This document shows positions 14,288-43,968 of a stretch of DNA of 64,000 nt, one piece after another. Positions within the stretch are counted from its first letter, which is position 1. Each line of letters starts with the position of its first letter. The position numbers and the translations under genes were made by a program. Origin of the DNA: Candidatus Latescibacterota bacterium (GTDB taxonomy: Bacteria > Latescibacterota > UBA2968); assembly GCA_965116885.1 (NCBI GenBank), contig OZ220741.1, positions 5,472,001 through 5,536,000 of the forward strand, in the 5' to 3' direction. The notes below the pieces were generated by a model. It was given only the letters and a program-made list of their open reading frames with translations. It was not told the DNA's origin and ran no database searches.

Positions 14288-14330
14288 TCTCTTGTCAGTG
14301 GCAAATTTTACACCGCTCCAAACGTTGCCT

Positions 14331-15608
14331 CTATAGGCTCGACAACAATTGCTCTGTACGCTCGGCTCCGTTTAGCAAAATGTTGTGTTTCATCCGGGGG
14401 CTTTCCAAACGCTCTAAAATTGCGTTTGCCATTCGCTCTAATGTCAGTTCTTCAGAGCGTATCATATCCGCTATACCTAATTCGGAAAGTTTCTCTGCTC
14501 GAGGTGCTTGATCAAGGTCTGTCTTTGCTGGAATCGGTACCAAAATAGCTTTTACACCTGTCTCAAGGACATTCATACACGTATTATAGCCCGCCTGACT
14601 GATAGACAATTCTGCGCCCTGCATCCACTGAAGAAAGTCGTTCGTGAACTTCGACAGATAGAAGAAATCTTCTGTACACATTTCTTCTATCGCATCATAC
14701 TCAGCGTCCTTCATAAAAACCCCAGCAAAGATCACCATCTTCATGTTTTGAACATAACCATTCTCGCAAAGTATCTTCCAGGCAGTTACCGCTGTTGTAA
14801 TCATGTCCCAACCGAGGATACCGCCACCAACACTGACCAAAACATAAGGTCCCTGTTTCTCTATCGTTTTTTGGGTATCGGAATCAAGGCTTTTCAATTT
14901 TTCAGAAACATATCCTGTATATTCAATTGGAATCTCGATATTCTCTATCCAGGGAAAAAATGATTCCAATTGAAAAAGTCTCGGATCACCGTGAATGAGG
15001 ACGTAATCAAAATATCGATTCAACACAGGAACAACGCGTTCGTAATACAATCGTGACAACCTTTTGTTTTTTTGGTCCTTACGCAAAAAAGAAACTGCAT
15101 ACCAAATCATCCTGGGTATGAAAAACAAAGTTTCCGGATGTGGCGGTTTCTTTGTAGAAAGCTCTTTTTCAGGAGTCTTTCTTATTATTTCACGTACGGA
15201 ACAGATCACCTTCACTTTTGGATTTACACTCTTTGCCTTTTGAATCGCAGGGATCAACTCTTTGTACAGTATAGATCTGGCAAATGGAAAAAGTTCAATC
15301 ACGAAAATATCTGGCTGTATCTGTGCAATTTTTTCGAGCAAAATTTGCCTGCGCTTCTCCTGAGCCTTCCGCAGACTGAATTTTGGGTCTTCACACACTA
15401 TGCGCTGAGACTCTAAATCCTTAAAGAGAGCTGGCAAACGAATGGTCGTAACTGACGGTATATCAATACGATGAATTTCGCGTCCCCCATCTACAAAATA
15501 GACTTTATAGCTTTTTGCCAATGCGCGAACGATCTGAAAATTTCTAAAATGATGACCAACACCTAACAAGTGTTGACTGAAGAAAACAATGCGTTTTTTG
15601 GATAACAT
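14331..15608 (-). CDS. glycosyltransferase, GT-B fold (COG4671 / GT28 C-terminal-like)
   Basis: QHLLGVGH, IELFPF, VSVGGG, SQAGYNT and DQ..RA motifs. Confidence 0.85.
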   Translation of the reverse strand: MLSKKRIVFFSQHLLGVGHHFRNFQIVRALAKSYKVYFVDGGREIHRIDIPSVTTIRLPALFKDLESQRIVCEDPKFSLRKAQEKRRQILLEKIAQIQPDIFVIELFPFARSILYKELIPAIQKAKSVNPKVKVICSVREIIRKTPEKELSTKKPPHPETLFFIPRMIWYAVSFLRKDQKNKRLSRLYYERVVPVLNRYFDYVLIHGDPRLFQLESFFPWIENIEIPIEYTGYVSEKLKSLDSDTQKTIEKQGPYVLVSVGGGILGWDMITTAVTAWKILCENGYVQNMKMVIFAGVFMKDAEYDAIEEMCTEDFFYLSKFTNDFLQWMQGAELSISQAGYNTCMNVLETGVKAILVPIPAKTDLDQAPRAEKLSELGIADMIRSEELTLERMANAILERLESPRMKHNILLNGAERTEQLLSSL

Positions 15609-15641
15609 TTATCAGAATCCTCTGAGACCCATGATTTTGAT

Positions 15642-16085
15642 CTAAGAGCCACGTTCAGCCTCTAAATCTACACGGGATGAATTTTTTTGAATAAGGCTTT
15701 CGCATCTCACTTTTGCGCGGTAAGCAGTAAGAGACATGTCATTTACCTTCATAAACACCTCACAAAAATACTTTGAGGAATGAAATCCACACATGCCTGC
15801 AACCTCATAGGTCAACAGGGATTGTTCGCTTATTAAGTGCTTTGCATGGGCAATTCTGATCTCTCTCAATTTTTCTCGGAAAGGCTTGCCAACATGCTTT
15901 TTGAACAAGGCACTCAGATGCGTTCTGGAAAGTTTGAAATGATCTACGAGATCACTAAATTTGAGGTCCGGGTTGCTGTAATGCGCCTCCAAAAAGGCTT
16001 CAAACGCAATTTTCCAACTCGAATCTGATGGGATATAGGTTTTGACCTTCGCCAAAAACTTGCTCCTTTCAACTACACTATTCAA
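15642..16085 (-). CDS. AraC-family regulator, HTH domain only
   Basis: HLSALFKKHVG...RIAHAK.L....EVAGMCGF.SSKYFCEVF double HTH; no sensor domain. Confidence 0.8.
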   Translation of the reverse strand: MNSVVERSKFLAKVKTYIPSDSSWKIAFEAFLEAHYSNPDLKFSDLVDHFKLSRTHLSALFKKHVGKPFREKLREIRIAHAKHLISEQSLLTYEVAGMCGFHSSKYFCEVFMKVNDMSLTAYRAKVRCESLIQKNSSRVDLEAERGS

Positions 16086-29263: not shown

Positions 29264-29542
29264 AATGCAAAAACTGGGTATCAAGCGTCCCTGATTACCG
29301 TCCGTATATGGATTATAGTCCATATACGGATGTTTATATATAACTATTTATTAATCAATAACATAAGAGCCAGTCTGAATTTTTTTGAACCATATACGGT
29401 TCAAAGGACATAAAATTCGGGCTGGTTTTTTTGTTGGCATATAAATTTTATCTCAAATAAAAATAATATCTTATGAGTATTTATTTGGATTCTGTTCACG
29501 TTGGCACGCTTTTTGCATTATATCCAAACATTTAATGCCATA
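29262..29542 (+). repeat. ~280-bp near-identical direct repeat (copy 1) of 40146-40427: activator 3' end, UAS dyads and sigma54 promoter
   Basis: Read by eye, the two stretches differ at only a few positions. Confidence 0.93.
29501..29517 (+). promoter_or_regulatory. sigma54 promoter (copy 1)
   Basis: TTGGCACGCTTTTTGCA; CCRTATAYGG dyads at 29301, 29319 and 29385. Confidence 0.85.
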
Positions 29543-29972
29543 CATACGTGAGGTGGCGGACAGTGCTGAAGATGAGATTTATGCCTACGGCGGCCTGGGC
29601 ACCACCAGTGAGCAGGACATCCAGGACTTTTCAATGAAAATCAGAGGCTCGACGGGAACCCTGAAAATTTGCGTACGTGACCACGAATGCGAAGATGGCG
29701 ATAGGATCAGGGTTGAGGTCAATGGCAGGAGCATATTTTCCGGAGAAATTGACAACGACTGGGACTGCTACACGCTGGATGTGTGGTCAGGAGAGAGCTA
29801 TGCAGTGGAATTGACAGCCCTCAACGGCACGGGATACAAGGGAGACTGTAGCTACCGAGACGAAAACACGGGTGAGATCCGCGTTACTGGGGAGAACACA
29901 GAGACGCAGGTATGGCGTCATCGTGGAGGAGCCGGATCGAAAGCGCGGATCATCGTGGAAACAGCGAGGTGA
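29535..29972 (+). pseudogene. 5'-deleted copy of the GIWSDG-repeat protein (C-terminal domain only)
   Basis: Nearly identical to the last ~130 aa of 40669-41805; lacks signal peptide, repeats and RBS. Confidence 0.7.
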
Positions 29973-30014: not shown

Positions 30015-30830
30015 ATGTATCGTCACTGTATTTGTGCAGGTGTATTAATTCTTCTGAGCCTTCCCCTATGGTCACAACAGAACACCGGGGATAGTGTGCC
30101 TTCACCTGGGGAGACATTTCAAGACTGTGCTGAATGTCCAAAGATGGTTGTTGTGCCATCGGGAAGGTTCACGATGGGGTCACCCAAGCGTGAGGGGGGT
30201 GATGATGATGAAAAACCGATGCGCAGGGTGCGTATAGATTACCGGTTTGCGGTGGGTGTATATGAGGTGACCTTTGACGAATGGTATGCCTGTGCGGATG
30301 CAGGAGGTTGTGGAAGCTATGTGCCGGATGATGAGGGCTGGGGCCGCGGGAATCGTCCGGTGGTGAATGTGAGTTGGAAAGATGCCCAGTCTTATTTGCG
30401 TTGGCTGTCTGCCCGGACGGGTAAAACGTATCGTTTATTGAGTGAAGCGGAATGGGAGTATGTGGCACGCGCAGGCACAGAGACAGCGTATAGCTGGGGT
30501 GACAGCGTAGGTGTCAACCGCGCCAATTGCGATGGTTGCGGCAGTCAGTGGGATGATAAGATGACAGCACCAGTGGGATCTTTCGCGGCCAATGCTTGGG
30601 GCGTGTACGATATGCACGGGAATGTAGGGGAATGGGGGCAGGATCATTGGAATGAGAATTACAGGGGCGCACCTTTAGACGGTTCTGCGAGGGAGCCTGA
30701 GGATACCCTTTATCGCGTATTACGTGGTGGTTCGTGGCTCGACAGACCGGGGGACTTGCGTTCGGCGAATCGCGACAAGGGCTTCATCCGGTCCTCCCGC
30801 CGCGGTTTTCGAGTTGCCCGGTCTTTTTAA
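30015..30830 (+). CDS. secreted FGE-sulfatase (SUMF1/CLec-fold) domain protein 1
   Basis: Signal peptide; FQDC.ECPKMV, YEVTF, RLLSEAEWEY, DMHGNV.EW, RGGSW, GFRVAR. Confidence 0.9.
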   Translation: MYRHCICAGVLILLSLPLWSQQNTGDSVPSPGETFQDCAECPKMVVVPSGRFTMGSPKREGGDDDEKPMRRVRIDYRFAVGVYEVTFDEWYACADAGGCGSYVPDDEGWGRGNRPVVNVSWKDAQSYLRWLSARTGKTYRLLSEAEWEYVARAGTETAYSWGDSVGVNRANCDGCGSQWDDKMTAPVGSFAANAWGVYDMHGNVGEWGQDHWNENYRGAPLDGSAREPEDTLYRVLRGGSWLDRPGDLRSANRDKGFIRSSRRGFRVARSF

Positions 30831-30873
30831 CTCGTGATTCTTTACAGAAACATCAACGAAAGGAAGGTGCGTC

Positions 30874-31713
30874 ATACAGAGCATAATCAAAGGCATTCTT
30901 TTTACAGTCTTATTGGGACTTTTCGCGGTTGCATCTGCCCAACTGCCGCACACCGGGGATAGTGCGCCTTCACCTGGAGAAACTTTTCAAGATTGTGCTG
31001 AATGTCCAAAGATGGTGGTGATACCATCGGGATCGTTCAGGATGGGATCACCCGCGCGTGAGAGGGGTGATGCTAATGAAAGGCCGTTGCATAGGGTACG
31101 TATAGATTACCGGTTTGCGGTGGGGGTATATGAGGTAACATTTGACGAATGGTATGCTTGTCTGGATGCAGGAGGTTGTGGAAACTATCTTCCGGATATT
31201 CCAGATAATAGCTGGGACCGCGAGAATCGTCCTGTGATCAATGTGAGTTGGGACGATGCACAGTCTTATGTTAGTTGGTTGTCAGACCGGACGGGTAAAA
31301 CGTATCGTTTATTGAGTGAATCGGAATGGGAGTATGTGGCGCGTGCTGGTTCAACGACGAAGTATAGCTGGGGAGACAGCATCGGTGTCAACCGTGTCAA
31401 TTGTGTCGCTTGCGGCGATCAGTGGGGTAGTAAGACAGCGCCAGCGGGATCGTTCGCGGCCAATGCTTGGGGCGTTCACGATATGCACGGGAATGTAATG
31501 GAATGGGTACAGGACTGTAGGAACGACAGTTATGAAGGTGCGCCTACTGATGGAAGTGCCTGGCTATCTGGAGACTGCGACAGGCGCATGTTTCGTGGTG
31601 GTTCGTGGTGCCTCGCTCCGAGTTACTTGCGCTCTGCAGAACGCTACGGGATCTCCACCGATGATCGGGAATTCGTCTGCGGACTCGGTTTTCGAGTTGC
31701 CCGGTCTTTTTAG
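30874..31713 (+). CDS. FGE-sulfatase (CLec-fold) domain protein 2; signal peptide begins at an in-frame ATA (probable mutated ATG)
   Basis: Same motifs as protein 1; AAGGAAGG RBS 6 nt before ATA-CAG-AGC (xQSIIKGILFTVLLGLFAVASA). Confidence 0.8.
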   Translation: MQSIIKGILFTVLLGLFAVASAQLPHTGDSAPSPGETFQDCAECPKMVVIPSGSFRMGSPARERGDANERPLHRVRIDYRFAVGVYEVTFDEWYACLDAGGCGNYLPDIPDNSWDRENRPVINVSWDDAQSYVSWLSDRTGKTYRLLSESEWEYVARAGSTTKYSWGDSIGVNRVNCVACGDQWGSKTAPAGSFAANAWGVHDMHGNVMEWVQDCRNDSYEGAPTDGSAWLSGDCDRRMFRGGSWCLAPSYLRSAERYGISTDDREFVCGLGFRVARSF

Positions 31714-31968
31714 CTCCTCTCATCTAACAGATGCCCAAATGCTTCAAGACTGGACACCTGAATCGCCGCTCGGTGCAACTGCTTGAGGCGTTGCAGATCG
31801 TCGATAGCGGCAATGCGAGCAGATATGGGGTGTGACTCAGACATATCAAATCTCTAACACTTCGAGGATATCTTCAAGCGTGCTTTTTCTTTCCCCTTGC
31901 TCAAAACTTTCCTCTCTGCTTTGTTGGGTAAGGTGTTGAAAAAGAGATGATTCGCGAATGAGATCCAT
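31710..31968 (-). pseudogene. frameshifted Rpn/YhgA-like C-terminal tail (RpnS-like)
   Basis: MDLIRESSLFQHLTQQSREESFEQGERKSTLEDILEVLE / ..SARIAAIDDLQRLKQLHRAAIQVSSLEAF; 5-nt deletion relative to the intact tail at 44175-44340. Confidence 0.65.
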
Positions 31969-31997
31969 GTGGGCTTCTCTTTGTAAAGTTTTTATAC

Positions 31998-32186
31998 TCA
32001 CTGACCGTTTGTTGTATTCCCATTTTGATCTTCTAAGGCAGTGCGTATGGCTTCTATGTCAATATCCGGATGCATTTTTTTAACGATAGCAATGGTTTCC
32101 TCATGTCCTTTTCTTTGCCCATCCTGGAAGCGTTTTTCAAGATACCTTTCAGTCTCAGCACGGATTTTTTGAACTGGGACGATCAT
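31998..32186 (-). pseudogene. truncated homologue of 44173-44721 with a different C-terminus
   Basis: MIVPVQKIRAETERYLEKRFQDG is identical in both; upstream TM-coding part deleted. Confidence 0.65.
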
Positions 32187-32418
32187 GAGATTTACCCCCT
32201 CTATAATGAAGAATGCTAATATGCCCTTAAATATGCTGTATTGCGCAGTTGTTCACAACTTGAATTTGTGGATTGCCTGTTAAAGCGGAGATGGAGCAGA
32301 ACAGATGTTGGTGTATATTTTGAGCGACGAATGAGAGGTATGGTGAAAGATATGTACTTCTGTATTATACACTAAAGCGGGGTAATTCCAATGGCCGAGT
32401 ACCAGGTGGGAAAAGATC

Positions 32419-32934
32419 CTACAACCGCCGAGATAGTCGCCTTATGCGCTGGCGCGTTTCATGAGAAGGTAGGAACACCAGTTCATCTTCAAGAAAAAGC
32501 TGTAACGCATTATACAGAACCTCAACCGGCACGACCCCCTGGGTTTCCATCTCGTCTGTGGTCCAGAGTACGCCATGGACCTCAATTCCTTTCTCCTCTG
32601 CTATTCTCCGCAAGAGACCATCACCCGTCAACAGGATGCAGTCCTCGATTTGTTCAGCCAGTACCAGCGCAAAGCAATCATTGAGCGCGAGCCTGGCATA
32701 TTGATTGAAATACCGGGCGGCGTGCTGTACGAGGGGTCCCGGCAATGTGTGTACTTCAAGTCCCAGATCGAGCAAGGCTCTTTTTTCGTCCGCGCTCAAA
32801 CCCAGCCATTCATTCTCGAAAAGAGTATCGGGCATTACAAATGAATAGGGGAGTTGCAACATCGCTTCGAGAAGACCGCCCTTCCTCAGATCGATCATAC
32901 AACTCGTATCGCTAACTACTGTCTGCATTGCCAC
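32419..32934 (-). CDS. PIN-like nuclease domain protein (DUF3368-like), putative toxin
   Basis: VVSDTSCMIDL, LALNDCFALVLA, LLTGDGLLR, VHGVLW acidic PIN pattern. Confidence 0.75.
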   Translation of the reverse strand: MAMQTVVSDTSCMIDLRKGGLLEAMLQLPYSFVMPDTLFENEWLGLSADEKRALLDLGLEVHTLPGPLVQHAARYFNQYARLALNDCFALVLAEQIEDCILLTGDGLLRRIAEEKGIEVHGVLWTTDEMETQGVVPVEVLYNALQLFLEDELVFLPSHETRQRIRRLSRRL

Positions 32935-33988
32935 TGGCAGGTCCTTTCAGCCCTTTTTCGATGTCTGCCAATGGCTTTTGCAACAACTCGCAAGCTTTTC
33001 CTGGATCGATGAGTTTCTCGGCAAGTGCCCAATAACAAAGCCTCTCAAATCGCTGCGGCACTTCGTGATTTCCTTTCAACAATTCCGGTTCGCGCTTCCG
33101 CCAGCCGCGCGCAAACGTCCGGAACGCATAGTCGAAAGTCGATTGATTGATGATGCCGACCTGCCTGAGACGGACCAAAAGCGTTGCCGCGCTTACCCGG
33201 TATATGCGCTTGATCTGGATCAATTCCCGATAACAGAGGGCCTTTCTCTGTTCGCCTATTGCGCGCATCAGATGATCTTTAGGCATCAGAAAAGCTCCAG
33301 CGAAGATGTCTGACGCCTTTTCACGATTGACAGGCGAGGTTTTATCGATTAGCTGGTGTGCAAGTTCGTGGGCGAGGGCAAACCGCCGCCTTTCCTGCGA
33401 GGCCTCCGCGTTTACAACAATAACCGGTATCCTAATCTTTTGCTGCGACCTGTACACAAAACAGGTGAGTCCCGAGACGCGATCGGGCAGGGGCATCATG
33501 AGCACCTTGATGCCTCGATCCTCCAGCAAAGCGGTCATATTGGGGATGGGATCAACTCCCAGTTGCCATTTTTGGCGCAGATTCTGTGCCAGAACTTCAC
33601 TGTCTTCCTCGCGTTCCAGCCACCGTTTACCCAATCGGGGAGCCTTCGAGGTCCCACTATCGCCTGAGAGTATCTCTTCAATGGCAAAGTAGCGTTGCAG
33701 GCTGTCAATGACCGCCGCCTCAACGCGTGCTCGATTACCGGCACTCATGCCCGGGTGCTTGCGAAACTCGGGGATTTTGAGGGCTTCGACGCGTTCGCTG
33801 AGCAGATAGTCCAGTGAAACGCCGAGCACGCTGGCGAGATGAATCAGTACGCTGGAGCGCGGCATCATTTCTCCGCGTTCATATTTTCCAATGGCCTGCG
33901 CAGTCACTTCACCGTCCAGCGCGTAGGAGAGACCGCGCAGTGAATAACCGGCCTTTTTTCGGGCGAGTTGCAAGTGCTTTCCAAACAT
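32912..33988 (-). CDS. XRE-type HTH fused to an ImmA/IrrE (M78) metallopeptidase
   Basis: N-terminal HTH_3 (ARKKAGYSLRGL..IGKYERG); RRFALAHELAH HExxH; FAGAFLMP. Confidence 0.9.
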   Translation of the reverse strand: MFGKHLQLARKKAGYSLRGLSYALDGEVTAQAIGKYERGEMMPRSSVLIHLASVLGVSLDYLLSERVEALKIPEFRKHPGMSAGNRARVEAAVIDSLQRYFAIEEILSGDSGTSKAPRLGKRWLEREEDSEVLAQNLRQKWQLGVDPIPNMTALLEDRGIKVLMMPLPDRVSGLTCFVYRSQQKIRIPVIVVNAEASQERRRFALAHELAHQLIDKTSPVNREKASDIFAGAFLMPKDHLMRAIGEQRKALCYRELIQIKRIYRVSAATLLVRLRQVGIINQSTFDYAFRTFARGWRKREPELLKGNHEVPQRFERLCYWALAEKLIDPGKACELLQKPLADIEKGLKGPASGNADSS

Positions 33989-34008
33989 GTAATTCCTCAG
34001 CCTTGTGG

Positions 34009-34042
34009 TTTACAATTTTCTATTTTATATTCAAAATGTAAA
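34009..34042. promoter_or_regulatory. inverted repeat upstream of HTH-ImmA gene, candidate autoregulatory operator
   Basis: TTTACAATTTT ... AAAATGTAAA. Confidence 0.4.
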
Positions 34043-34106
34043 TATAAATGTTGCGTTGCACAACCAAAAATCAGGAGGTTAAAATTGGAGAAAGAGATGG
34101 AACAAC

Positions 34107-34236
34107 TAGCTGGGGTGACAGCGTAGGTGTCAACCGTGCCAATTGCGTTGGTTGCGGCAGTGCGTGGGATGGTGAGCAGACAGTGCCAGTGGGCTCATTC
34201 GAGGCCAATGGTTGGGGCTTTACGACATGCACGGCA
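34107..34236 (+). pseudogene. internal fragment of a fifth FGE-domain gene
   Basis: SWGDSVGVNRANCVGCGSAWDGEQTVPVGSFEANGWG, then frameshifted YDMHG. Confidence 0.8.
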
Positions 34237-34287
34237 GCGCGCGTATGGCATCTATGTCAATATGGTGAAAGAAATGTTCCCTGGATC

Positions 34288-36714
34288 TCACTCACTTCGC
34301 AGGGAATCCACAGGATTAGCGCCCGCAGTTCTGACTGCCTGCCACCCCACCGTCATCAGAGCGATGATCAGCGTCAACACCCCACTCAAAATGAAAAACC
34401 CGATACTCAGGTCAATGCGATAGGCGAAGTTGTGGAGCCAGCCGCTCATCGCGTAATAAGCGACGGGCCAGGCAAGGAGATTTGCCAGAACAACGGGCTT
34501 TACAAAATCCTTTGTAAACAGCAGCACAATATTCGCGACGGATGCCCCCAGCACCTTCCGAATCCCCACCTCCTTCGTCCGCTGTTCCGCTATATAAGAA
34601 GCCAGACCAAACAGACCAAGACAGGCGATACAAATAGCCAGCGCCGTCAAACCGCCAAGCATCTTGCCGCGCTGTTCATCTGCGCGATACTGGCGTTCAA
34701 AATAATCGTCCAAAAATGCGTATTCAAATGGAGAATAGGGAACATAGGACTCCCACTTCTCTTTCAAAAAACTCAGCGCATCCGAACTCCGATTGGGACG
34801 AACCCTGACCAAAAAATAATAACCGCCACTCGGCGAAATATGCAAGAACATCGGTTCAATCTGCTGATAAAGAGATTGAACGTGAAAATCCTTCACCACG
34901 CCTATGACAGTACGAGGACGGCTCTCCCGAAAGGTCAACACCAATTCCTTACCAAGAGCTTCTTTGGGCGAACCCCAGCCAAAATGCACGACCGCTGTTT
35001 CGTTTACAACAACCGCGTCAGATTCGTCGGTCGAAAAATCTTTTGAAAAATCCCTCCCCTCGACTATCTCGATTCCAAGCGTCTTTATAAAATCGTGATC
35101 GACCGCATAGCCCGGCACCTGCATTTCACCCTGAACGCCTTCCGGATGCACTGGCCGTCTGCGAAGAGGAAATCCCGTTGACCGCGTTGGCACAGGTACA
35201 CGAGATGATAGCGTGCAACTCAGGAGATCGGGACTCTGCAAAAAGTCAGCCTTGATCGCCTCGTATTTTGCACGGAGATCTCGATGTCTGAAAAGCGGCA
35301 GAGAAATAACATTCGCCCTTTCAAACCCCAGATCCTTGTCTTTCACATACGCCATTTGCGAATAAATAACGCTCGTACCTGTAATCAGCGCGATTGAAAT
35401 GGCAAATTGGACAACCACGAGCAATTGCCTGATGCGCGAAGTCTGCAAACCCGCATGCCGCACGCCCTTTAACACCGTCACAGGTTGAAATGCAGAAAGA
35501 AAAAACGCCGGATAACTCCCGGCAACAATACCCGTAACAAGCGCGACACCTGCCAAACCCAATATTGCAGATATACTGGTGTATTCAACGACCAATTGCT
35601 GACCGATCAAACGATTAAAAAGCGGCAGTGAAAGTTCGACAAGAGAAACCGCAAACAAAAGCGCAATAAATGCCAGCAGTGCAGATTCACCTATAAATTG
35701 CCGGATCAATTGCAGGCGGTAAGCTCCGACAACCTTTCTTATACCCACCTCCTTCGCACGCGCAGCAGAACGCGCCGTGGAAAGATTCATAAAATTGATA
35801 CAGGCGATCAAGAGCACAAAGCAGGCGAGAGCGGAAAAGATATAGACGTGAACAATATCGCTATTCGGCTCGATCTCGTGACTCAAATGTGAGTAGAGGT
35901 GGATTCTCGTAAGGGGCTGTAAGAAGAATCTCACACCCATTCCACGCTCTGACAGCACCTCTCCCATGTATTTTTTCACAAACGTGGGAAATTTATCCTC
36001 AAGCTCCTGGGGCGAATATCCCTTCGGAAGAACCAGGTATGTATAGAGCAACGGATTTGACAGCCAATTCTTCAGAATAGCACTTGTCGCGCCTCTCTCA
36101 TGTAAACTCGCATACGAAGCCAGAATTTCGAATCTAAAATGAGAATTGCGCGGAATTTCCCGTATAATCCCCGTCACCGTGTAATGGTTTTGCACGACAG
36201 GTGTTACAAATGTGAGAACCTGACCCATAGGATCTTTTGTGCCAAAGTACTTGCGTGCCGCTCTCTCGGTAAGCACGACAGAATAGGGTGACTGAAGAGC
36301 CGTATGCCGGTCTCCCTTAATTAAGGGAAAATCAAAAACCTCCAAAACCGATGCATCTCCAAAAAGGATAGACTCTTGAAAGCGGTTATTCTCATGAAAG
36401 ATCACAGATGACCCACGTATGAACCTGGCGGCCTGGACAACCTCGGGAAATTCGGCGCGCAAAGCCGGAGCCAATGGAGGAGGAGAAGTCGCCGTTGGCA
36501 TAACCTGTCCATCTGTGGCTATTCGCTCCTGTGCAACCCTGTAAATCCGATCTGCTTTTTCATGGTACGTATCATAACTGAGTTCAAAGCGGACAAAACT
36601 CAAAATCAAGACACAGGTAGCTATGCCAATCGCCAATCCCGCTATGTTGACAAATGAATAAACCTTTTGCCGAAACAGATTGCGAAAAGCAACTGTCAGA
36701 TAATTTCTTAACAT
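34288..36714 (-). CDS. ABC transporter permease, duplicated MacB_PCD/FtsX type
   Basis: MLRNYLTVAFRNL, ACINFMNLSTARS..RAKEVGIRKV.GA, EQRTKEVGIRKVLGAS, NPVDSLRSE. Confidence 0.93.
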   Translation of the reverse strand: MLRNYLTVAFRNLFRQKVYSFVNIAGLAIGIATCVLILSFVRFELSYDTYHEKADRIYRVAQERIATDGQVMPTATSPPPLAPALRAEFPEVVQAARFIRGSSVIFHENNRFQESILFGDASVLEVFDFPLIKGDRHTALQSPYSVVLTERAARKYFGTKDPMGQVLTFVTPVVQNHYTVTGIIREIPRNSHFRFEILASYASLHERGATSAILKNWLSNPLLYTYLVLPKGYSPQELEDKFPTFVKKYMGEVLSERGMGVRFFLQPLTRIHLYSHLSHEIEPNSDIVHVYIFSALACFVLLIACINFMNLSTARSAARAKEVGIRKVVGAYRLQLIRQFIGESALLAFIALLFAVSLVELSLPLFNRLIGQQLVVEYTSISAILGLAGVALVTGIVAGSYPAFFLSAFQPVTVLKGVRHAGLQTSRIRQLLVVVQFAISIALITGTSVIYSQMAYVKDKDLGFERANVISLPLFRHRDLRAKYEAIKADFLQSPDLLSCTLSSRVPVPTRSTGFPLRRRPVHPEGVQGEMQVPGYAVDHDFIKTLGIEIVEGRDFSKDFSTDESDAVVVNETAVVHFGWGSPKEALGKELVLTFRESRPRTVIGVVKDFHVQSLYQQIEPMFLHISPSGGYYFLVRVRPNRSSDALSFLKEKWESYVPYSPFEYAFLDDYFERQYRADEQRGKMLGGLTALAICIACLGLFGLASYIAEQRTKEVGIRKVLGASVANIVLLFTKDFVKPVVLANLLAWPVAYYAMSGWLHNFAYRIDLSIGFFILSGVLTLIIALMTVGWQAVRTAGANPVDSLRSE

Positions 36715-36998
36715 GGCCTCCCCTTTTTAAAATTGAATCAGCCTCCTCAATATAGATTTAGACAAGATGTTTTTTTTAAGGTTTCTAAAAAATCTTCACA
36801 TCCAGACCACCAATATCGGGCAGCAATCGCCCCGTTTTACCCCGCTTGACATTGGACATCAACGTAGTATTTTCTTACACAAAGATATTATCAAATGTTG
36901 TGGATGGCGTCGCGCGCATCATTAGAATTAAAGCGTGAACGAGCCTGGACCAGTTGTATCCCATCCCCAATGCAGGCGCGTGATAATAAGGGTTTTTT

Positions 36999-39900
36999 AT
37001 GATCAGATCACTTGACCGCAAAGGCATCTGGCAGACTTATTCTATGGCCGATGGTCTGGCTGGAGTACGCATTGAACACATCGCCGAAGATAGCGAAGGT
37101 TATCTCTGGTTCGCCACATGGGACAACGGTGTTAGTCGCTTCGATGGAGACGAGTTTCAGAATTTTACCAAACAGAATGGTCTTGTTAACGACCACGTTT
37201 ATTTTATTTCAAAGGACAGTCAGAAGCGGTTGTGGTTCGGTACATTAAGTGGTGTCTGCTGGTATGACGGATCAGAGTTCCGCCATTTGGAAGATACCGG
37301 GATCGCACGCCGACCTGTCCAGTTCATCTACGAAGATAATGAAGGGCGTATATGGTGTGGCGGTCACAGGACCCTGGGATATTACGACGGTACTGTGTTC
37401 CGAGACATGATTCCGCTCTACCTTCAGCAGTATCAGGAACCACCTTCTCCTGAGTGGCCCAACCAGTGCCGGGGCATTGTCGAGGACCCAGAAGGCCACA
37501 TGTGGTTTGGCTTTAACTACCTCATCCGTTTCGATGGTCAATCCTTCCACCGCTATGAAGAGAAAGAGGGGTTTCCGCGAGGCAAGATAAACTATGCTGT
37601 GGGGCAGGACAATACCGGTAAGGTGTGGGTGGGGCAGCACGAAAGCAAAAACGAACTCTGGTGCTATACCCATGGCACCTTTGAGCCGGTTGAGATAAAT
37701 TTGGGTAGCCCACTGCGCAAAATCCAGTGTGACCGGGAAGGCCGAATGTGGTTCTGCACTTCAGAAGGGGGATTGTATCAGGACGGTGACGGGTTCAGCA
37801 GGTTTACTCCTGCCGATGGCCTGCCCCATCCCGCAGTCAAAGCCGTATTACAGGATCGAGATCATCAGTATTGGTTTGCCACCTGGGGTGGCGTCGGGCT
37901 TTACGATGCACATAGTATCAGCGTTTTCGACTTCAGCTCAAGGGGTTCTAAAAGAGTGAGCGAGATCTCCCACATCGCACAAGATCGGCGAGGTGATATG
38001 TGGGTCGGGTATGTAGCTCCCGCTCTCAACCGGCTGGAGAAAAGCGTTTTTCGCTTTGATGGCGAGGACTTTGACTTTGTAGGCACTGAGGATGGCTTTG
38101 ATATCGACAACTGTTTCGCTATCTACGAGGACTGCGATGGGGACCTGTGGTTTGGTGGCCACAATGGCTTATTCCGCTACAATGGGAAGAAAATAGAAAA
38201 AATGCAAACAATCGCAGGTTTAGGAAAAAGAAGTGTCAGTGCAATTACCCAGGACTCGCAAGGGCGATTCATTTTTGGCCATTGGGAAAGCAACAACATA
38301 ATCGAAAAAATAGATCTTCTTGTCAGTCCTTTGAAGATCATTTATCAGCGGGGTGAGCAGTTCCAAGCCATTTTTGTAGAAGATAAAAATAAGGATCCTT
38401 TCAGCTACATTGGTACTGTGATTACCGGGCGAGATGGCGAGGTCTATTTTCATCTCATTCACCAAAATTTTTCCGACAACGATAGGGGTTTCGCGCGCTG
38501 GCATCCAGAAGAGGGGCTCAAATTCTATGGAATTGAAGACGGACTGATAGACCACAGGGTCAATGATCTTCTCAAAGACCGCGATGGCAACTTGTGGATC
38601 GCTACTCAAAGAGGTCTCAGTTGCTTTGACGGCAGTACCTTCCACAATTTTACGACGAAAGATGGGCTGCCGAGCAATGCCATCCGTTGCTTATTCGAAG
38701 ATTCGCAAGGCCACCTCTGGCTTGGCACAGACGGGGGCGTAGTTCACTACGATGGCCAGCTTTTCCAGACCATCAAATCACCTCACATAGGACCCGTTCT
38801 TCAGATACTCGAAGATCGCGACGGGGCTTTCTGGTTCGGTACAGTCCAAAACACTGTGGTGCGCTACCGGCAACAAAAAAAATCGCCCCAGATTCACCTG
38901 ATTCAAGTTGTCGCCGGTCAGGTCTATGAGAACCTGCAGGAAGGCATCGTATCTACGATAGATCAAGATATAATTTTTGAATACAAGGGCCTGAGTTTTT
39001 CCACGCATCCCCGCGACATGCTCTATGTCTATCGCCTGAAGGATTATGATTCCGACTGGCAACCTGCAACTCGAAAGACGCGGGCCTACTACCGGAACTT
39101 GCCACCGGGAGACTACACCTTTCAGGTCAGGGCGATAGATCGCGATCTCAATTACTCGGAGACCGCACAGGCGCGACTTTCCGTAGAAATGGACCCGCGC
39201 ATCAGCGCGCTGACCTCCATAATCAACAGCACGGATGGCGTTGGCAAAGAATTTATCGGTGAGAGTGCGGCACTGCACGCGTTTCAAATCCAGCTTAGAC
39301 AGGTGGCATCTACTGATCTGTCGGTGCTGTTTAAGGGCGAGACGGGTGTGGGCAAGGGATTGGCTGCGCGGGTGTTACACGCGCTGAGTTCCAAGTGCGA
39401 TGGCCCTTTTATGCAGGTCAACTGCGGTGCCTTGCCAACAGCACTGATCGATAGTGAACTCTTTGGTCACGAGAGGGGCGCATTTACCAGCGCAGTGTCT
39501 CGCAGGCTGGGCAAGGTAGAACTGGCTAAGGGCGGCACGCTCTTTTTGGACGAAGTCGGCGACATGAGCCTGGAAACGCAAGCCAGGATGTTGCGCTTGC
39601 TGGAAGAGGGCACGTTTGAGCGCGTTGGAGGCAGCGAGACGCTATCGATACAGGCGCGGATTGTAGCAGCGACCAATCGCGACCTTGAAGAGATGGTCAA
39701 TGCAGGTACTTTCCGCGAGGATCTCTATTATCGCATCAATGCCTTTCCAATGTCTTTACCGCCCCTGCGCGAGCGCAAGGAGGATATCCCAGACCTTGCC
39801 GAGCTTTTCAAGACTCGCATGGCCACACATCTGGACAAGCAAATCGAGCCTCTGGCGGTAGAGGTGATAGAAGTGCTGCAAGCCTACGATTGGCCAGGCA

Positions 39901-40178
39901 ATGTACGAGAACTGGAACACACGATAAACCGCGCCGTCATCGTGTGTCAAGATTCTCAAATTGAAGTTGCGGACATCGGCCTGATAAACAGTAGCCCTCC
40001 TGTTTCTCCAGACAGCGAAATCGTGCCAATGGCTGAATTTGAACGCGATTATATTCTCAAAGCACTCAAAGCGACCAACTGGAAAATAAGGGGAACCGAA
40101 GGCGCGGCGACACTGCTGCAATTACCGCCTTCTACCCTGTATGGCAAAATGAGAAAACTGGGGATCAAGCGTCCCTGA
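36999..40178 (+). CDS. sigma54-dependent activator with N-terminal Reg_prop beta-propellers and Y_Y_Y domain, AAA+ domain and Fis-type HTH
   Basis: Repeated DGL...V..I.ED..G.LW.T..G; YRL.DYD..W...Y.NLPPGDYTFQVRA; GETGVGK, ELFGHERGAFTSA, FLDEVGD, WPGNVREL; HTH. Confidence 0.92.
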   Translation: MIRSLDRKGIWQTYSMADGLAGVRIEHIAEDSEGYLWFATWDNGVSRFDGDEFQNFTKQNGLVNDHVYFISKDSQKRLWFGTLSGVCWYDGSEFRHLEDTGIARRPVQFIYEDNEGRIWCGGHRTLGYYDGTVFRDMIPLYLQQYQEPPSPEWPNQCRGIVEDPEGHMWFGFNYLIRFDGQSFHRYEEKEGFPRGKINYAVGQDNTGKVWVGQHESKNELWCYTHGTFEPVEINLGSPLRKIQCDREGRMWFCTSEGGLYQDGDGFSRFTPADGLPHPAVKAVLQDRDHQYWFATWGGVGLYDAHSISVFDFSSRGSKRVSEISHIAQDRRGDMWVGYVAPALNRLEKSVFRFDGEDFDFVGTEDGFDIDNCFAIYEDCDGDLWFGGHNGLFRYNGKKIEKMQTIAGLGKRSVSAITQDSQGRFIFGHWESNNIIEKIDLLVSPLKIIYQRGEQFQAIFVEDKNKDPFSYIGTVITGRDGEVYFHLIHQNFSDNDRGFARWHPEEGLKFYGIEDGLIDHRVNDLLKDRDGNLWIATQRGLSCFDGSTFHNFTTKDGLPSNAIRCLFEDSQGHLWLGTDGGVVHYDGQLFQTIKSPHIGPVLQILEDRDGAFWFGTVQNTVVRYRQQKKSPQIHLIQVVAGQVYENLQEGIVSTIDQDIIFEYKGLSFSTHPRDMLYVYRLKDYDSDWQPATRKTRAYYRNLPPGDYTFQVRAIDRDLNYSETAQARLSVEMDPRISALTSIINSTDGVGKEFIGESAALHAFQIQLRQVASTDLSVLFKGETGVGKGLAARVLHALSSKCDGPFMQVNCGALPTALIDSELFGHERGAFTSAVSRRLGKVELAKGGTLFLDEVGDMSLETQARMLRLLEEGTFERVGGSETLSIQARIVAATNRDLEEMVNAGTFREDLYYRINAFPMSLPPLRERKEDIPDLAELFKTRMATHLDKQIEPLAVEVIEVLQAYDWPGNVRELEHTINRAVIVCQDSQIEVADIGLINSSPPVSPDSEIVPMAEFERDYILKALKATNWKIRGTEGAATLLQLPPSTLYGKMRKLGIKRP

Positions 40179-40184
40179 TTACCG

Positions 40185-40288
40185 TCCGTATATGGATTAT
40201 AGTCCATATATGGATGTTTATATATAACTATTTATTAATCAATAACATAAGAGCCAGTCTGAATTTTTTTGAACCATATACGGTTCAA
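40185..40288. promoter_or_regulatory. three CCRTATAYGG dyads, candidate binding sites for the adjacent activator
   Basis: TCCGTATATGGA (40185), TCCATATATGGA (40203), TTGAACCATATACGGTTCAA (40269), 100-200 bp upstream of the -24 box. Confidence 0.65.
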
Positions 40289-40385
40289 AGGACATAAAAT
40301 TCGGGCTGGTTTTTTTTGTTGGTATAGAAATTTTATCTCAAATAAAAATAACATCTTATGAGTATTTATTTGGATTCCATTCACG

Positions 40386-40402
40386 TTGGCACGCTTTTTG
40401 CA
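40386..40402 (+). promoter_or_regulatory. sigma54 promoter (copy 2)
   Basis: TTGGCACGCTTTTTGCA matches the consensus. Confidence 0.88.
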
Positions 40403-40668
40403 CTATATCTAAACATTTAATGCCATAAAGGAGAAGATTGAAACCCAGGCCCTGAATGCCTCACTTAGAGAACTTGCCGGGCGAATCACCCCCGACTAGC
40501 CCGGCCCAGGGCGATAGATGAGATTTTAGGCATAATTCTATCGCCCCTCTGCATTTTCAATGCCATATCAGCGCATTTCACTTCTTCAAGTATGCGCCGT
40601 GTGGCTTTATCAGTAGATCCACCAACATCGCGTGTGAGTCGAAGAACAAGCATATAAAGGAGGCATCT

Positions 40669-41805
40669 ATGTGGAACCGTATGATCTTAACCATTTGTCT
40701 GGTATTCGTGTTGCCAGGTCTGGCATTGACTGGCGACATGACCCACGTCCCGGACAGGGACTTCGATAAGCTACGTGCCGCAGGAAACAGAAACCCCACA
40801 GGGGTCTGGTCAAACGGAACGACCATGTGGGTGGCGGACAGGCGCGCTAAAATTTATGCCTACAACATGAGGACCAGAGCTCGTGACCGAGGCAGGGAAT
40901 TCAATACGTTAGCCACTGAAAACGAATCTCCTGCAGGAATCTGGTCAGACGGCACGACTATGTGGGTAGTGGACCTTGCTGACGGTAGGATTTTTGCCTA
41001 CAGCATGAGATCTAAAGCCCATGATCCGGACAAGAGCTTCTATCTCGCCGTAGAACACGACGTCCCTGAAGGAATCTGGTCGGATGGGACAACCATGTGG
41101 GTGAAGGAAAGCTCTTACCAATTCGATAAAATTTATGCCTACAACATGAGGTCTAAAGCCCGTGATCCGAACAAGGACTTCAATACGCTAAAAGCCGCCG
41201 GAGAGCAAAGCACTGACGGAATTTGGTCAGACGGAACGACCATGTTGGTAGCAGACGGATATCGGCATAAAATTTACGCCTACAACATGAGATCTAAAGC
41301 CCGTGACCGGGGCAAGGAATTCGATCTCGCCGCAGGAAACACCTCCCCTACGGGTATCTGGTCGGACGGAACGACTATATGGGTAGCGGACTACGACAGG
41401 GGCCACATTTATGCCTACGGCGGCCTGGGCACCACCAGTGATCAGGCCATCCAGGACTTTTCAATGAAAATCAGAGGCTCGACGGGAACCCTGAAGGTTT
41501 GCGTGCGTGACCACGAGTGCGAAGACGGCGATAAGATCAGGGTTGATATAGATGGCAGGAGCATATTTTCCGGAGAAATTGACAACGACTGGGACTGCTA
41601 CAATCTGACGGTCTGGTCAGGCGAGAGCTATGCAGTGGAATTGACAGCGCTCAACGGGACGGGATACAAGGGGGACCACTGTAGCCACAGAGACGTTAAC
41701 ACGGGCGAGATCCGCGTTACTGGAGAGAACACAAAAACGCAGGTCTGGCGTCATCGCGGAGGTGCCGGGTCGAAAGCGCGTATCATCGTGGAAACAGCGA
41801 GGTGA
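40669..41805 (+). CDS. secreted protein with five ~46-aa GIWSDGTTMWV repeats (beta-propeller-like) and a Cys-containing C-terminal domain
   Basis: Signal peptide; AAGGAGG RBS; five repeats of P.GIWSDGTTMWV.D....IYAY.M. Confidence 0.85.
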   Translation: MWNRMILTICLVFVLPGLALTGDMTHVPDRDFDKLRAAGNRNPTGVWSNGTTMWVADRRAKIYAYNMRTRARDRGREFNTLATENESPAGIWSDGTTMWVVDLADGRIFAYSMRSKAHDPDKSFYLAVEHDVPEGIWSDGTTMWVKESSYQFDKIYAYNMRSKARDPNKDFNTLKAAGEQSTDGIWSDGTTMLVADGYRHKIYAYNMRSKARDRGKEFDLAAGNTSPTGIWSDGTTIWVADYDRGHIYAYGGLGTTSDQAIQDFSMKIRGSTGTLKVCVRDHECEDGDKIRVDIDGRSIFSGEIDNDWDCYNLTVWSGESYAVELTALNGTGYKGDHCSHRDVNTGEIRVTGENTKTQVWRHRGGAGSKARIIVETAR

Positions 41806-41851
41806 GATCATCCAAATGTTGTTCAAAAATATTAATGAAAGGATACACAAG

Positions 41852-42670
41852 ATGTATCGTCACTGTATTTGTGCAGGTGTATTAATTCTTCTGAGCCTTC
41901 CCCTTTGGTCACAACAGGACACCGAGGATAGTGCGCCTTCACCTAATGAGACGTTTCAAGATTGCGACGAATGTCCAAAGATGGTGGTGATCCCATCGGG
42001 CAGGTTCACGATGGGATCATCCAGGGGGGAGGCGGGACATAAAGATAATGAAGAACCGTTGCATAGGGTGCGTATAGATTACCAATTTGCCGTAGGCGTA
42101 TATGAGGTGACATTTGCCGAATGGTATGCCTGTGTGGATGCAGGTGGTTGTGGAAACTATATTCCGGATGATTGGCACTGGGGCCGCGGGAATCGCCCTG
42201 TGATGAATGTGAGTTGGGAAGATGCCCAGTCTTATGTGCGTTGGCTGTCTGTCCGGACGGGTAAATCATACCGTTTATTGAGTGAAGCGGAATGGGAGTA
42301 TGTGGCGCGTGCAGGGACAGAGACAGCGTATAGCTGGGGAGACAGCATAGGTGTCAACCGTGCCAATTGCTTGGGTTGCGGCGATCAATGGGATAAGACC
42401 GCGCCTGTGGGATCTTTCGCAGCCAATGCTTGGGGTGTTCACGATATGCACGGCAATGTGCAGGAGTGGGTACAGGACTGTTGGAATGACAGTTATGAGG
42501 GCGCACCTACAGACGGTTCTGCGCGGGAGGAGGAGGAGTGCAATGATCGCGTTGTCCGTGGTGGTCCGTGGTACTATACTCCGAAGTACGTGCGTTCTGC
42601 GTCTCGCAGCTCGGACTTCTCCGACTACCGGTTCCGCGGCCTCGGCTTTCGAGTTGCCCGGGATTTTTGA
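41852..42670 (+). CDS. secreted FGE-sulfatase (CLec-fold) domain protein 3
   Basis: Signal peptide identical to protein 1 (MYRHCICAGVLILLSLPLWSQQ); FGE motifs. Confidence 0.9.
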   Translation: MYRHCICAGVLILLSLPLWSQQDTEDSAPSPNETFQDCDECPKMVVIPSGRFTMGSSRGEAGHKDNEEPLHRVRIDYQFAVGVYEVTFAEWYACVDAGGCGNYIPDDWHWGRGNRPVMNVSWEDAQSYVRWLSVRTGKSYRLLSEAEWEYVARAGTETAYSWGDSIGVNRANCLGCGDQWDKTAPVGSFAANAWGVHDMHGNVQEWVQDCWNDSYEGAPTDGSAREEEECNDRVVRGGPWYYTPKYVRSASRSSDFSDYRFRGLGFRVARDF

Positions 42671-43053
42671 ACCTTTGGGTTCACCTCTTTGCCCTTTTGT
42701 AGGGGATAGGAGAGGTTGGTTTTACGATTTTTTTAAGCAACCACGGATGAATACCGATAAACACGAATGAAAGGCAAAAAGCCGAAAGCAACCACAGCAT
42801 AGGCAGGCAACACAACAGAGTGTCTAAAATCCCTAAAATTCGATAAGCAGCATCAATCACAGGGATTGACCCCAAGCCCTAAACTCTCCACCGAAGCGGG
42901 GTAACTCCAGCACAATAAAAACCCTGCAAGATAGCGTAAGCGCCCTGCAAGATTCGGTGAACAAACATCCAGATAGACACCTTCACATTATAGCGGCGAA
43001 ACTTGATACCTTGAGAGACCTTTACAAAGTGACCAAGGAATAGGAGAAACACC

Positions 43054-43890
43054 ATGCGACAAGTGCTTATTGCCTTCTTTATTCCGGCCTTATTGGGACT
43101 TTTCGCGGTTGCATCTGCCCAACTGCCGCACACCGGGGATAGTGCGCCTTCACCTAATGAGACTTTTCAAGACTGTGATGAATGCCCAAAGATGATTGTC
43201 GTGCCGTCAGGATCGTTCACGATGGGGTCACGCGCGCGTGAGAGGGGTCCTGCTAATGAAAGGCCGAGGCATAGGGTTCGTATAGATTACCAGTTTGCAG
43301 TGGGTGTATATGAGGTGACATTTGACGAATGGTATGCTTGTCTGGATGCAGGAGGTTGTGGAAACTATCTTCCGGATATTCCAGATGATAGCTGGGACCG
43401 CGGGAATCGTCCTGTGATCAATGTGAACTGGGAAGATGCCCAGTCTTATGTTCGTTGGTTGTCAGCCCGGACGGGTAAAACGTATCGTTTATTGAGTGAA
43501 GCGGAATGGGAGTATGTGGCACGGGCAGGTACAGAGACGGCGTATAGCTGGGGGGACAGTATCGGTGTCAACCGTGCCAATTGCTCTGGTTGCGGCAGTC
43601 AGTGGGATGGTAAGATGACAGCACCAGTGGGATCATTCGCGGCGAATGCCTGGGGCGTTTACGATATGCACGGGAATGTGTGGGAATGGGTTCAAGATTG
43701 CTGGAATGATAGCTATGTGGGCGCACCTTCAGACAGTTCTGCATGGGAGTCTGGGGATTGCTCTGAGCATGTGATACGTGGTGGTTCGTGGGGCGAAGTA
43801 CCGAGAAACCTGCGTTCTGCGTATCGCTACGGGATGAACACCGAGTACCGGTTCAGATTCCTCTGTTTTCGAGTTGTCCGGGATCTTTAA
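43054..43890 (+). CDS. secreted FGE-sulfatase (CLec-fold) domain protein 4
   Basis: AGGAG RBS, signal peptide, FGE motifs. Confidence 0.9.
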   Translation: MRQVLIAFFIPALLGLFAVASAQLPHTGDSAPSPNETFQDCDECPKMIVVPSGSFTMGSRARERGPANERPRHRVRIDYQFAVGVYEVTFDEWYACLDAGGCGNYLPDIPDDSWDRGNRPVINVNWEDAQSYVRWLSARTGKTYRLLSEAEWEYVARAGTETAYSWGDSIGVNRANCSGCGSQWDGKMTAPVGSFAANAWGVYDMHGNVWEWVQDCWNDSYVGAPSDSSAWESGDCSEHVIRGGSWGEVPRNLRSAYRYGMNTEYRFRFLCFRVVRDL

Positions 43891-43968
43891 CTCCTCTCAT
43901 CTAACAGGTGCCCAAATGCTTCAAGACTGGACACCTGTATCGCCGCGCGGTGCAACTGCTTGAGGCGT
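43891..43968 (-). pseudogene. third, short copy of the Rpn-like tail
   Basis: Encodes RLKQLHRAAIQVSSLEAFGHLLDE; matches 31714-31791 and 44177-44249. Confidence 0.7.

Follow-up and report, generated by a model that had tools for sequence, protein, structure and literature searches.

Variable repeats in FGE-fold paralogues of a Latescibacterota genome as probable relics of a lost diversity-generating retroelement

Can the targets of a diversity-generating retroelement (DGR) still be recognized in a genome that no longer holds the element itself? The question is raised by a 64,000-nucleotide stretch of a Latescibacterota genome (the window; positions 5,472,001–5,536,000 of a 5.56-Mb genome in a single contig, 98.36% complete), in which four similar genes, here called g1–g4, encode proteins of the formylglycine-generating enzyme (FGE) family. 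An original prediction, made from the sequence of the window, had found a DGR-type signature at the 3′ ends of these four genes, with no reverse transcriptase (RT) or template repeat (TR) nearby, and had taken them for remote (in trans) or ancestral DGR targets. The signature proves to be real, and four is an undercount, as three further genes elsewhere in the genome (g5, g6 and g7) belong with them. As argued below, g1–g4 and at least g5, g6 and g7 are probably relic targets of a multi-target DGR that has been lost.

The genes and repeats of the window are as follows, with repeat lengths given relative to the TR of the DGR of G016, a genome of the same genus that is described below:

30015–30830, plus strand: g1, putatively secreted, PvdO-like protein with an FGE-sulfatase domain (Pfam, open reading frame)
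30723–30830 (interior 30738–30803), plus strand: putative relic variable repeat of g1, 6 nt shorter than the G016 template
30913–31713, plus strand: g2, paralogue (Pfam, open reading frame)
31594–31713 (interior 31609–31686), plus strand: putative relic variable repeat of g2, 6 nt longer than the G016 template
41852–42670, plus strand: g3, paralogue (Pfam)
42557–42670 (interior 42572–42643), plus strand: putative relic variable repeat of g3, of G016 template length
about 42671–42735, plus strand: putative remnant of a downstream hairpin element after the g3 stop codon (comparison with G016)
43054–43890, plus strand: g4, paralogue (Pfam, open reading frame)
43777–43890 (interior 43792–43863), plus strand: putative relic variable repeat of g4, of G016 template length

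All four genes are real open reading frames (ORFs) in the ORF list, each with one full-length Pfam match to PF03781 (FGE-sulfatase, PvdO-like; E = 1e-50 to 1e-55) that ends no more than 2 residues from the C-terminus, and their products are 69–77% identical to one another. There are 16 PF03781 matches in the whole genome, eight of which (g1–g8) make up a close subfamily: besides the four in the window, g5 and g6 lie at 5.205–5.208 Mb, g7 lies at 4.398 Mb and forms the C-terminus of a protein of 941 aa, and g8 is at 4.391 Mb. The copies of relic type beyond the window are g5, g6 and g7, and the genome also contains two gene fragments.

Between RGGSW and GFRV, each of g1–g4 has a hypervariable block of 22–26 codons in which fixed and variable codons alternate; the repeat coordinates first proposed (30723, 31594, 42557 and 43777) are the starts of CGTGGTGGT(T/C)CGTGG, and the codon sets reported with them (CTC/TGC/TAC/GGC and so on) match the sequence as listed. 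Among two-fold, pyrimidine-ending codons of g1–g4, the fraction C/(C+T) is 23/29 (0.79) in the repeat interiors versus 75/224 (0.33) in the gene bodies (Fisher p = 3e-6), and the same test on g1–g5 and g7 gives 36/45 versus 121/338 (p = 2e-8), the paralogues being treated as independent in both. No such shift is seen in the eight other PF03781 paralogues of the genome (24/52 in the equivalent stretch versus 199/437 in the bodies, p = 1.0). In columns with at least three different residues, third-position C reaches 0.59 in the repeat region versus 0.21 in the body. The further claim that the variable codons keep position 3 while positions 1 and 2 change proved weaker than first put: codon pairs of g1–g4 that encode differing residues share position 3 in 0.68 of cases in the block versus 0.63 in the body, and the actual signal is the surplus of C endings together with the density of changes. 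Selection on the protein is disfavoured as the source of this surplus because the choice of C or T in a two-fold codon does not alter the residue; residue choice cannot yield an excess of C endings, and an AAC-rich template can. Framework codons of g1–g5 and g7, for their part, show synonymous differences in 0.13 of identical-residue pairs versus 0.33 in the bodies, a similarity that fits a scenario in which a single template homogenized the repeats after the paralogues had split.

The cassette that would have supplied such a template is absent. The whole genome gives no RVT_1 (RT) match at E ≤ 0.01, tblastn searches of the genome with the RT and the bAvd of G016 give best E values of 0.85 and 0.50, respectively, and blastn searches of the genome with the four repeats as queries return only paralogues and a 31-nt gene-end fragment, with no TR among the matches. 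What had been remarked for the neighbourhood of the genes is thus true genome-wide, and because RT, Avd and TR were each tested for and are absent, the system is not an active DGR.

A search for RVT_1 in 41 related genomes identified a 387-aa open frame in G016. The locus reads, in order, FGE target, bAvd (PF22296), RT (PF00078) and a non-coding, AAC-rich copy of the target end (the TR), and by this content it is a canonical DGR; translation of the template gives RGGSW-NNKPRN-LRSA-N-R-NRNTTENR-NNNN-GFRVAR. Eight G016 repeats differ from the TR at 14–19 of 33 adenine sites and at 0–1 of 71 other sites, and seven of these eight are located no more than 20 kb from the RT; drift is seen in two more copies, which mismatch the TR at 9 and 20 non-adenine sites. 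One G016 protein, of 933 aa, has two FGE domains (C1:4200001–4236000, L060/L061). In the excerpted text of PMC5758913, FGE-sulfatase proteins form the largest category of DGR targets (71 of 372 DGRs), multi-target DGRs make up about 15%, and the most targets observed for one DGR is eight, which is also the number of repeats served in G016.

Set against the G016 template, the repeats of g3, g4, g5 and g7 have exactly its length and register, and they mismatch it at 17–23 of 33 adenine sites versus 12–16 of 72 other sites (Fisher p from 2e-7 to 9e-4). All of the genome's own copies share several of these non-adenine mismatches, which suggests that the template of this lineage differed slightly from that of G016. 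Variation among g3, g4, g5 and g7 is enriched at template-A positions, as the original prediction had anticipated for DGR targets, with a column entropy of 1.18 bits at adenine sites versus 0.24 elsewhere (Mann-Whitney p = 3e-11), and the corresponding values for nine repeats of this type found in other species within the genus are 1.46 at adenine versus 0.28 at other sites. Eight g8 orthologues, used as a control, give 0.15 versus 0.19 (p = 0.73), with a constant peptide and ordinary synonymous drift. Of 44 codons that face AAC or AAT in the template, 39 have C or T as their third base. All copies retain the repeat 3′ end, GG(T/C)TTTCGAGTTG(C/T)CCGG, with the exception of g4, which begins TGT, and the G016 template has the 3′ framework spelling GGTTTTCGAGTTGCC in common with almost every repeat in the genus but not with templates from other phyla. 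A downstream element that is conserved behind the G016 repeats is recognizable after g3, g6 and g7 and not after g2, g4 and g5. Of the two options first offered for these genes, remote or ancestral targets, the shared length and register and the variation at adenine sites speak for the second.

We propose that an Avd-RT-TR cassette would once have overwritten the last ~100 nt of the coding sequence of each target with cDNA copied from an AAC-rich template, the adenines of which were read at random, and that this would have left NNC codons amid fixed framework codons. The cassette would then have been lost from the lineage without a trace, and the repeats would now be frozen and change by ordinary mutation alone. 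The repeats of this genome differ from one another at 6–11 of 66 non-adenine sites, and three of them depart from the template length, g1 by −6 nt, g2 by +6 nt and g6 by +72 nt; the suspicion of later drift or an inactive DGR, first raised by a few non-A changes and indels, is borne out by these figures.

Comparison with orthologues from other species is consistent with frozen repeats. Identity between g1 and its G007 orthologue is 90.7% in the body and 84.8% in the repeat interior, and between g3 and its G012 orthologue 90.4% and 87.5%; in more distant pairs the blocks are unrelated (e.g., g4 and its G017 counterpart, with 88.5% in the body and 59% in the block). The deletion in g1 is also present in the orthologues of G007, G015 and G017, and there would therefore have been no full homing at g1 since those species separated. 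In three orthologue pairs, dN/dS values of 0.19–0.20 show the gene bodies to be under purifying selection, and the corresponding values for the block are 1.4–1.6, calculated from small counts (8–26 non-synonymous changes). Assembled contigs from two sequencing runs (X15 and X16) span the g3 and g4 repeats with 0–1 differences, an agreement that we count as weak support, given that assembly drops rare variants and that one of the two runs may be the source of the genome assembly itself. Five raw reads were mapped from a third run (X17). Of the 304 differences from all mapped sequence, 40 were listed, and none of these falls in a repeat.

Stages in the decay of the cassette are found in relatives. 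Within the genus (21 genomes), one genome (G016) has the intact cassette, three have fragments of it, and 17, this one included, have nothing. G008 retains Avd and RT residues 1–112, with a stop codon present; G006 has pieces of Avd and RT and the last (3′) 67 nt of a TR, and the repeats beside these fragments have the framework of the genome studied here; G014 is left with RT residues 227–346 only. When the search with the G016 RT was extended to 53 genomes of the order, intact copies were found in G016 and G045 only and fragments in G006, G008, G014 and G029, the other matches being ~30% identical and mostly 463-aa repeated RTs of another kind. Related RTs, 67–86% identical, are present in records titled Binatia, Dehalococcoidia, Alphaproteobacteria, Nitrospira, Acidobacteriota, Pseudomonadales and others (L092–L124), and nearly all of these loci have a homologous template (RGGSWNN..GFR) in the codon style of the host. 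It seems that cassettes of this family pass from phylum to phylum.

Several points weigh against the loss of a DGR from this lineage as the explanation. The common ancestry of the paralogues makes the Fisher p values overstate their independence. The contrast between adenine and non-adenine sites is partly circular, because a template has its adenines, by design, where variation is tolerated; the codon-ending bias and the framework similarity are the only two lines of evidence free of this circularity. The template of the lineage was not recovered, the best of 28 external templates mismatching the genome's own repeats at 11–15 of 66 non-adenine sites. The likeness to the G016 system extends to the length and register of g3, g4, g5 and g7, the framework, the 3′ end and a related downstream element; however, the G016 island lies elsewhere and is not syntenic with the loci of the window, its targets are proteins of 547–933 aa with N-terminal extensions and are just 51–59% identical to those studied here in the FGE domain, and the G016 repeats fit their own template, whereas those of this genome fit none. 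Given the lack of synteny and the low identity, the cassette that served this lineage is one that we infer and do not see. Finally, g1–g4 have two hypervariable codons, in the contexts HGNV-x-EW and NC-x-GCG, that no plausible repeat would include, and ordinary selection therefore seems also to diversify this protein surface. Among the paralogues, the first of these codons specifies G/M/Q/W/R/L and the second D/V/L/S/R/N, both far upstream of the repeat; the HGNV-x-EW codon is also variable among the active G016 targets, beyond the reach of the template.

Were the repeats diversified in some other DGR-bearing organism and then acquired by horizontal transfer, this lineage would never have had a cassette. 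Such a history would agree with the mobility of the element, seen in an RT clade that is spread over records of many phyla, each with its homologous template, and with the fact that the flanks of the G016 island, which map to 3.069–3.0755 and 3.098–3.099 Mb of this genome, are contiguous with other content here; between the mapped flanks there is no PF03781 or RT match, and an "empty site" for a cassette of its own was not found. We nevertheless regard transfer as unlikely, as the 3′ spelling shared by the G016 template and the repeats of the genus is not that of the other-phyla templates, the short secreted paralogues have 85–90% identical orthologues in several species of the genus, and fragments of the cassette persist in three of its members.

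A history without any DGR, in which ordinary paralogues keep a fixed framework and diversify their loops under selection, could claim that the same framework (RG..W, P, RS..R, GFRVAR) is found in PvdO, for which no role as a DGR target is on record, that variable codons exist beyond the block, that block dN/dS between orthologues exceeds 1 (on the small counts given above), and that position 3 is retained among g1–g4 no more often than in the body. It is already disfavoured, and we consider it quite improbable: selection on residues does not pick C over T in two-fold codons, the variation falls on the adenines of a real template of the same length from the same genus, and orthologues of the g8 type show what the ordinary evolution of this stretch looks like.

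Continued diversification in trans by an RT and TR on a plasmid, on a phage or in an unassembled part of the organism's DNA, the other half of the original prediction, could draw on the conserved repeat 3′ end, on the hairpin remnant downstream of g3, g6 and g7, on in-trans service documented elsewhere (10.1101/2023.09.22.558884, in the parts of that preprint available) and on the fact, also a point against a lost cassette, that the assembly is a single chromosome contig and does not cover extrachromosomal DNA, but it is highly improbable given the lack of any chromosomal RT, Avd or TR, the 6–11 of 66 non-adenine differences among the genome's own repeats compared with 0–1 of 71 in the active G016 set, the g1, g2 and g6 indels that homing would erase, a g1 deletion common to three other species, and orthologous repeats that are almost unchanged at ~10% divergence of the bodies.

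If the seven genes are relic targets of a lost DGR, what kind of protein was being diversified? Among proteins of solved structure, the one nearest in sequence is Pseudomonas aeruginosa PvdO (PDB: 5hha; full-length match, E = 5.6e-54), and Treponema denticola TvpA (PDB: 2y3c), a DGR target, is also matched (E = 1.4e-12); these two matches already fix the predicted fold. The catalytic cysteine pair is not present in g1–g4, where the variable block occupies its place, whereas a paralogue at position 1,038,352 of the same genome does have the cysteine loop (RGGSYLCHDSYCNRYR). We take the loop RGGS-x-x-C-x-x-x-x-C to be the active-site cysteine motif of the formylglycine-generating enzyme, and because the block replaces it, g1–g4 are, by this motif, not catalytic FGEs. 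A signal-peptide-like hydrophobic stretch can be read in the translations at the N-termini of g1, g3 and g4. In g2, translation from the listed TTG start (30913) truncates the signal peptide; the upstream frame encodes the rest of it (IQSIIKGILFTVLLGLFAVASAQ), the interval 30868–30915 has no ATG, GTG or TTG 5′ of that TTG, and g2 would either use a rare start codon or have lost export. We infer that the proteins are Sec-exported, non-catalytic, PvdO-like binding proteins of the FGE/C-type-lectin fold; export, ligand binding and control by sigma-54 are all read from sequence, and ligand binding is suggested by family membership.

PvdO, presumably a single-copy pyoverdine maturation factor, is matched over its full length, including the RG..W...GFRVAR framework, and differs in that there are at least seven paralogues with a hypervariable block here. 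The likeness to TvpA and the other FGE-sulfatase/CLec1 DGR proteins lies in a C-terminal variable repeat within PF03781 and in NNC codons amid fixed framework codons. In contrast to DGRs of the TvpA class, this genome is without RT, Avd and template, its repeats have drifted at non-adenine sites and acquired indels, and the nearest solved relative of its proteins is PvdO rather than TvpA.

The four genes are arranged in two operons, each laid out as a partner protein followed by two FGE genes, with these associated features:

29502–29516, plus strand: exact sigma-54 −24/−12 consensus (TGGCACGCTTTTTGC) before operon 1 (motif search)
29535–29972, plus strand: opening gene of operon 1, encoding a protein of 145 aa that matches no Pfam family, its domain corresponding to the C-terminus of the 40669–41805 product (ORF)
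36999–40178, plus strand: predicted sigma-54 enhancer-binding protein between the operons, with a Reg_prop/Y_Y_Y sensor, Sigma54_activat and HTH_8 (Pfam)
40387–40401, plus strand: second exact sigma-54 consensus, the identical 15-mer, before operon 2 (motif search)
40669–41805, plus strand: opening gene of operon 2, encoding a protein of 378 aa that has repeats of the WSDGTTMWV type and the shared C-terminal domain (ORF)

Exact matches to TGGCAC-N5-TTGC number three in the window and 55 in the genome, and five of the 55, on the same strand and no more than 4 kb upstream, cover all eight genes of the subfamily (five operons). The idea that the repertoire is sigma-54-inducible is thereby supported at the level of motifs, and the FGE genes and their upstream partner appear to be transcribed from sigma-54 promoters. 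Pfam yields just one entry for the 378-aa protein, a borderline match to NCH3 (27.4 bits; cut-off 27), and no single stretch of the protein passes by itself. The shared domain, of ~140 aa, has no Pfam match, ends in ...TQVWRHRGGAGSKARIIVETAR and forms a separate gene 5′ of the FGE pairs; its sites are 29535–29972 and 40669–41805 in the window, L001 12100–13281 and L002 5990–8815. In g7 this domain immediately precedes the FGE domain within one protein, and because of this fusion we suggest that the partner and FGE proteins work together. The g5/g6 locus (L001, about 13650–16001) repeats the layout of the window, with a sigma-54 site, a repeat protein and FGE genes, and it apparently has its own paralogous enhancer-binding protein, to judge from an antisense ORF that matches one inside 36999–40178.

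Further traces of the family lie close to these loci. One is in the window:

34107–34234, plus strand: internal fragment of another FGE paralogue, a probable pseudogene piece, 84% identical to positions 492–620 of a query comprising the g4 region (window 43054–43920)

Contigs from runs X15 and X16 both connect 32304 to 34261, a junction that omits an HTH/Peptidase_M78 gene, a neighbouring 170-aa gene and part of this fragment, and the 1956-nt insert (32305–34260) seems to be absent in some strains. The 31-nt gene-end copy returned by the blastn search (GFRVARS and a stop codon; L001 6157–6187, or about 5202156–5202186 of the genome, minus strand) lies behind a truncated TPR-like ORF and reads as the scar of a rearrangement that took out another paralogue.

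This is a known kind of system, found here in a fossil state. The nearest parallel is Thiohalocapsa PB-PSB1, where, in the available portion of 10.1101/2023.09.22.558884, targets with an incomplete cassette of their own led the authors to ask whether these are "inactive remnants"; in that genome, however, other DGRs can serve in trans, whereas the genome studied here has no RT, and the PB-PSB1 repeats match their template at all non-adenine sites. The accessible part of 10.64898/2026.02.18.706561 models how DGR function is lost when environments are stable. Our literature search turned up no description of relic repeats in a genome that has no RT, though it was too thin to claim that none exists, and an equally thin search of titles and abstracts found no account of DGRs in sponge symbionts.

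DGR surveys begin from the RT, and genomes without one are counted as DGR-free. If g1–g7 are indeed relic targets, the footprint of NNC and framework codons could reveal former DGR targets in RT-less genomes; targets can outlive the element, their past would be readable from codon endings alone, and a single genus can include every stage between an intact cassette and its complete absence. For the uncultured Latescibacterota lineage itself, the putatively sigma-54-controlled and secreted proteins are likely to be binders of a surface or of the host matrix. A wider reading, which we hold to be a real possibility but somewhat short of probable, is that the DGR acted as a transient diversifier: it would have written differing binding sites into at least seven gene copies and then been discarded, leaving a hard-wired repertoire of secreted binders under sigma-54 control with a dN/dS above 1 in the old repeats, while the same cassette family would move between symbionts of many phyla, repeatedly gained and lost. 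The finding opens the question of how often hypermutation may be only temporary, with a family of binding proteins that is fixed from then on as its outcome.

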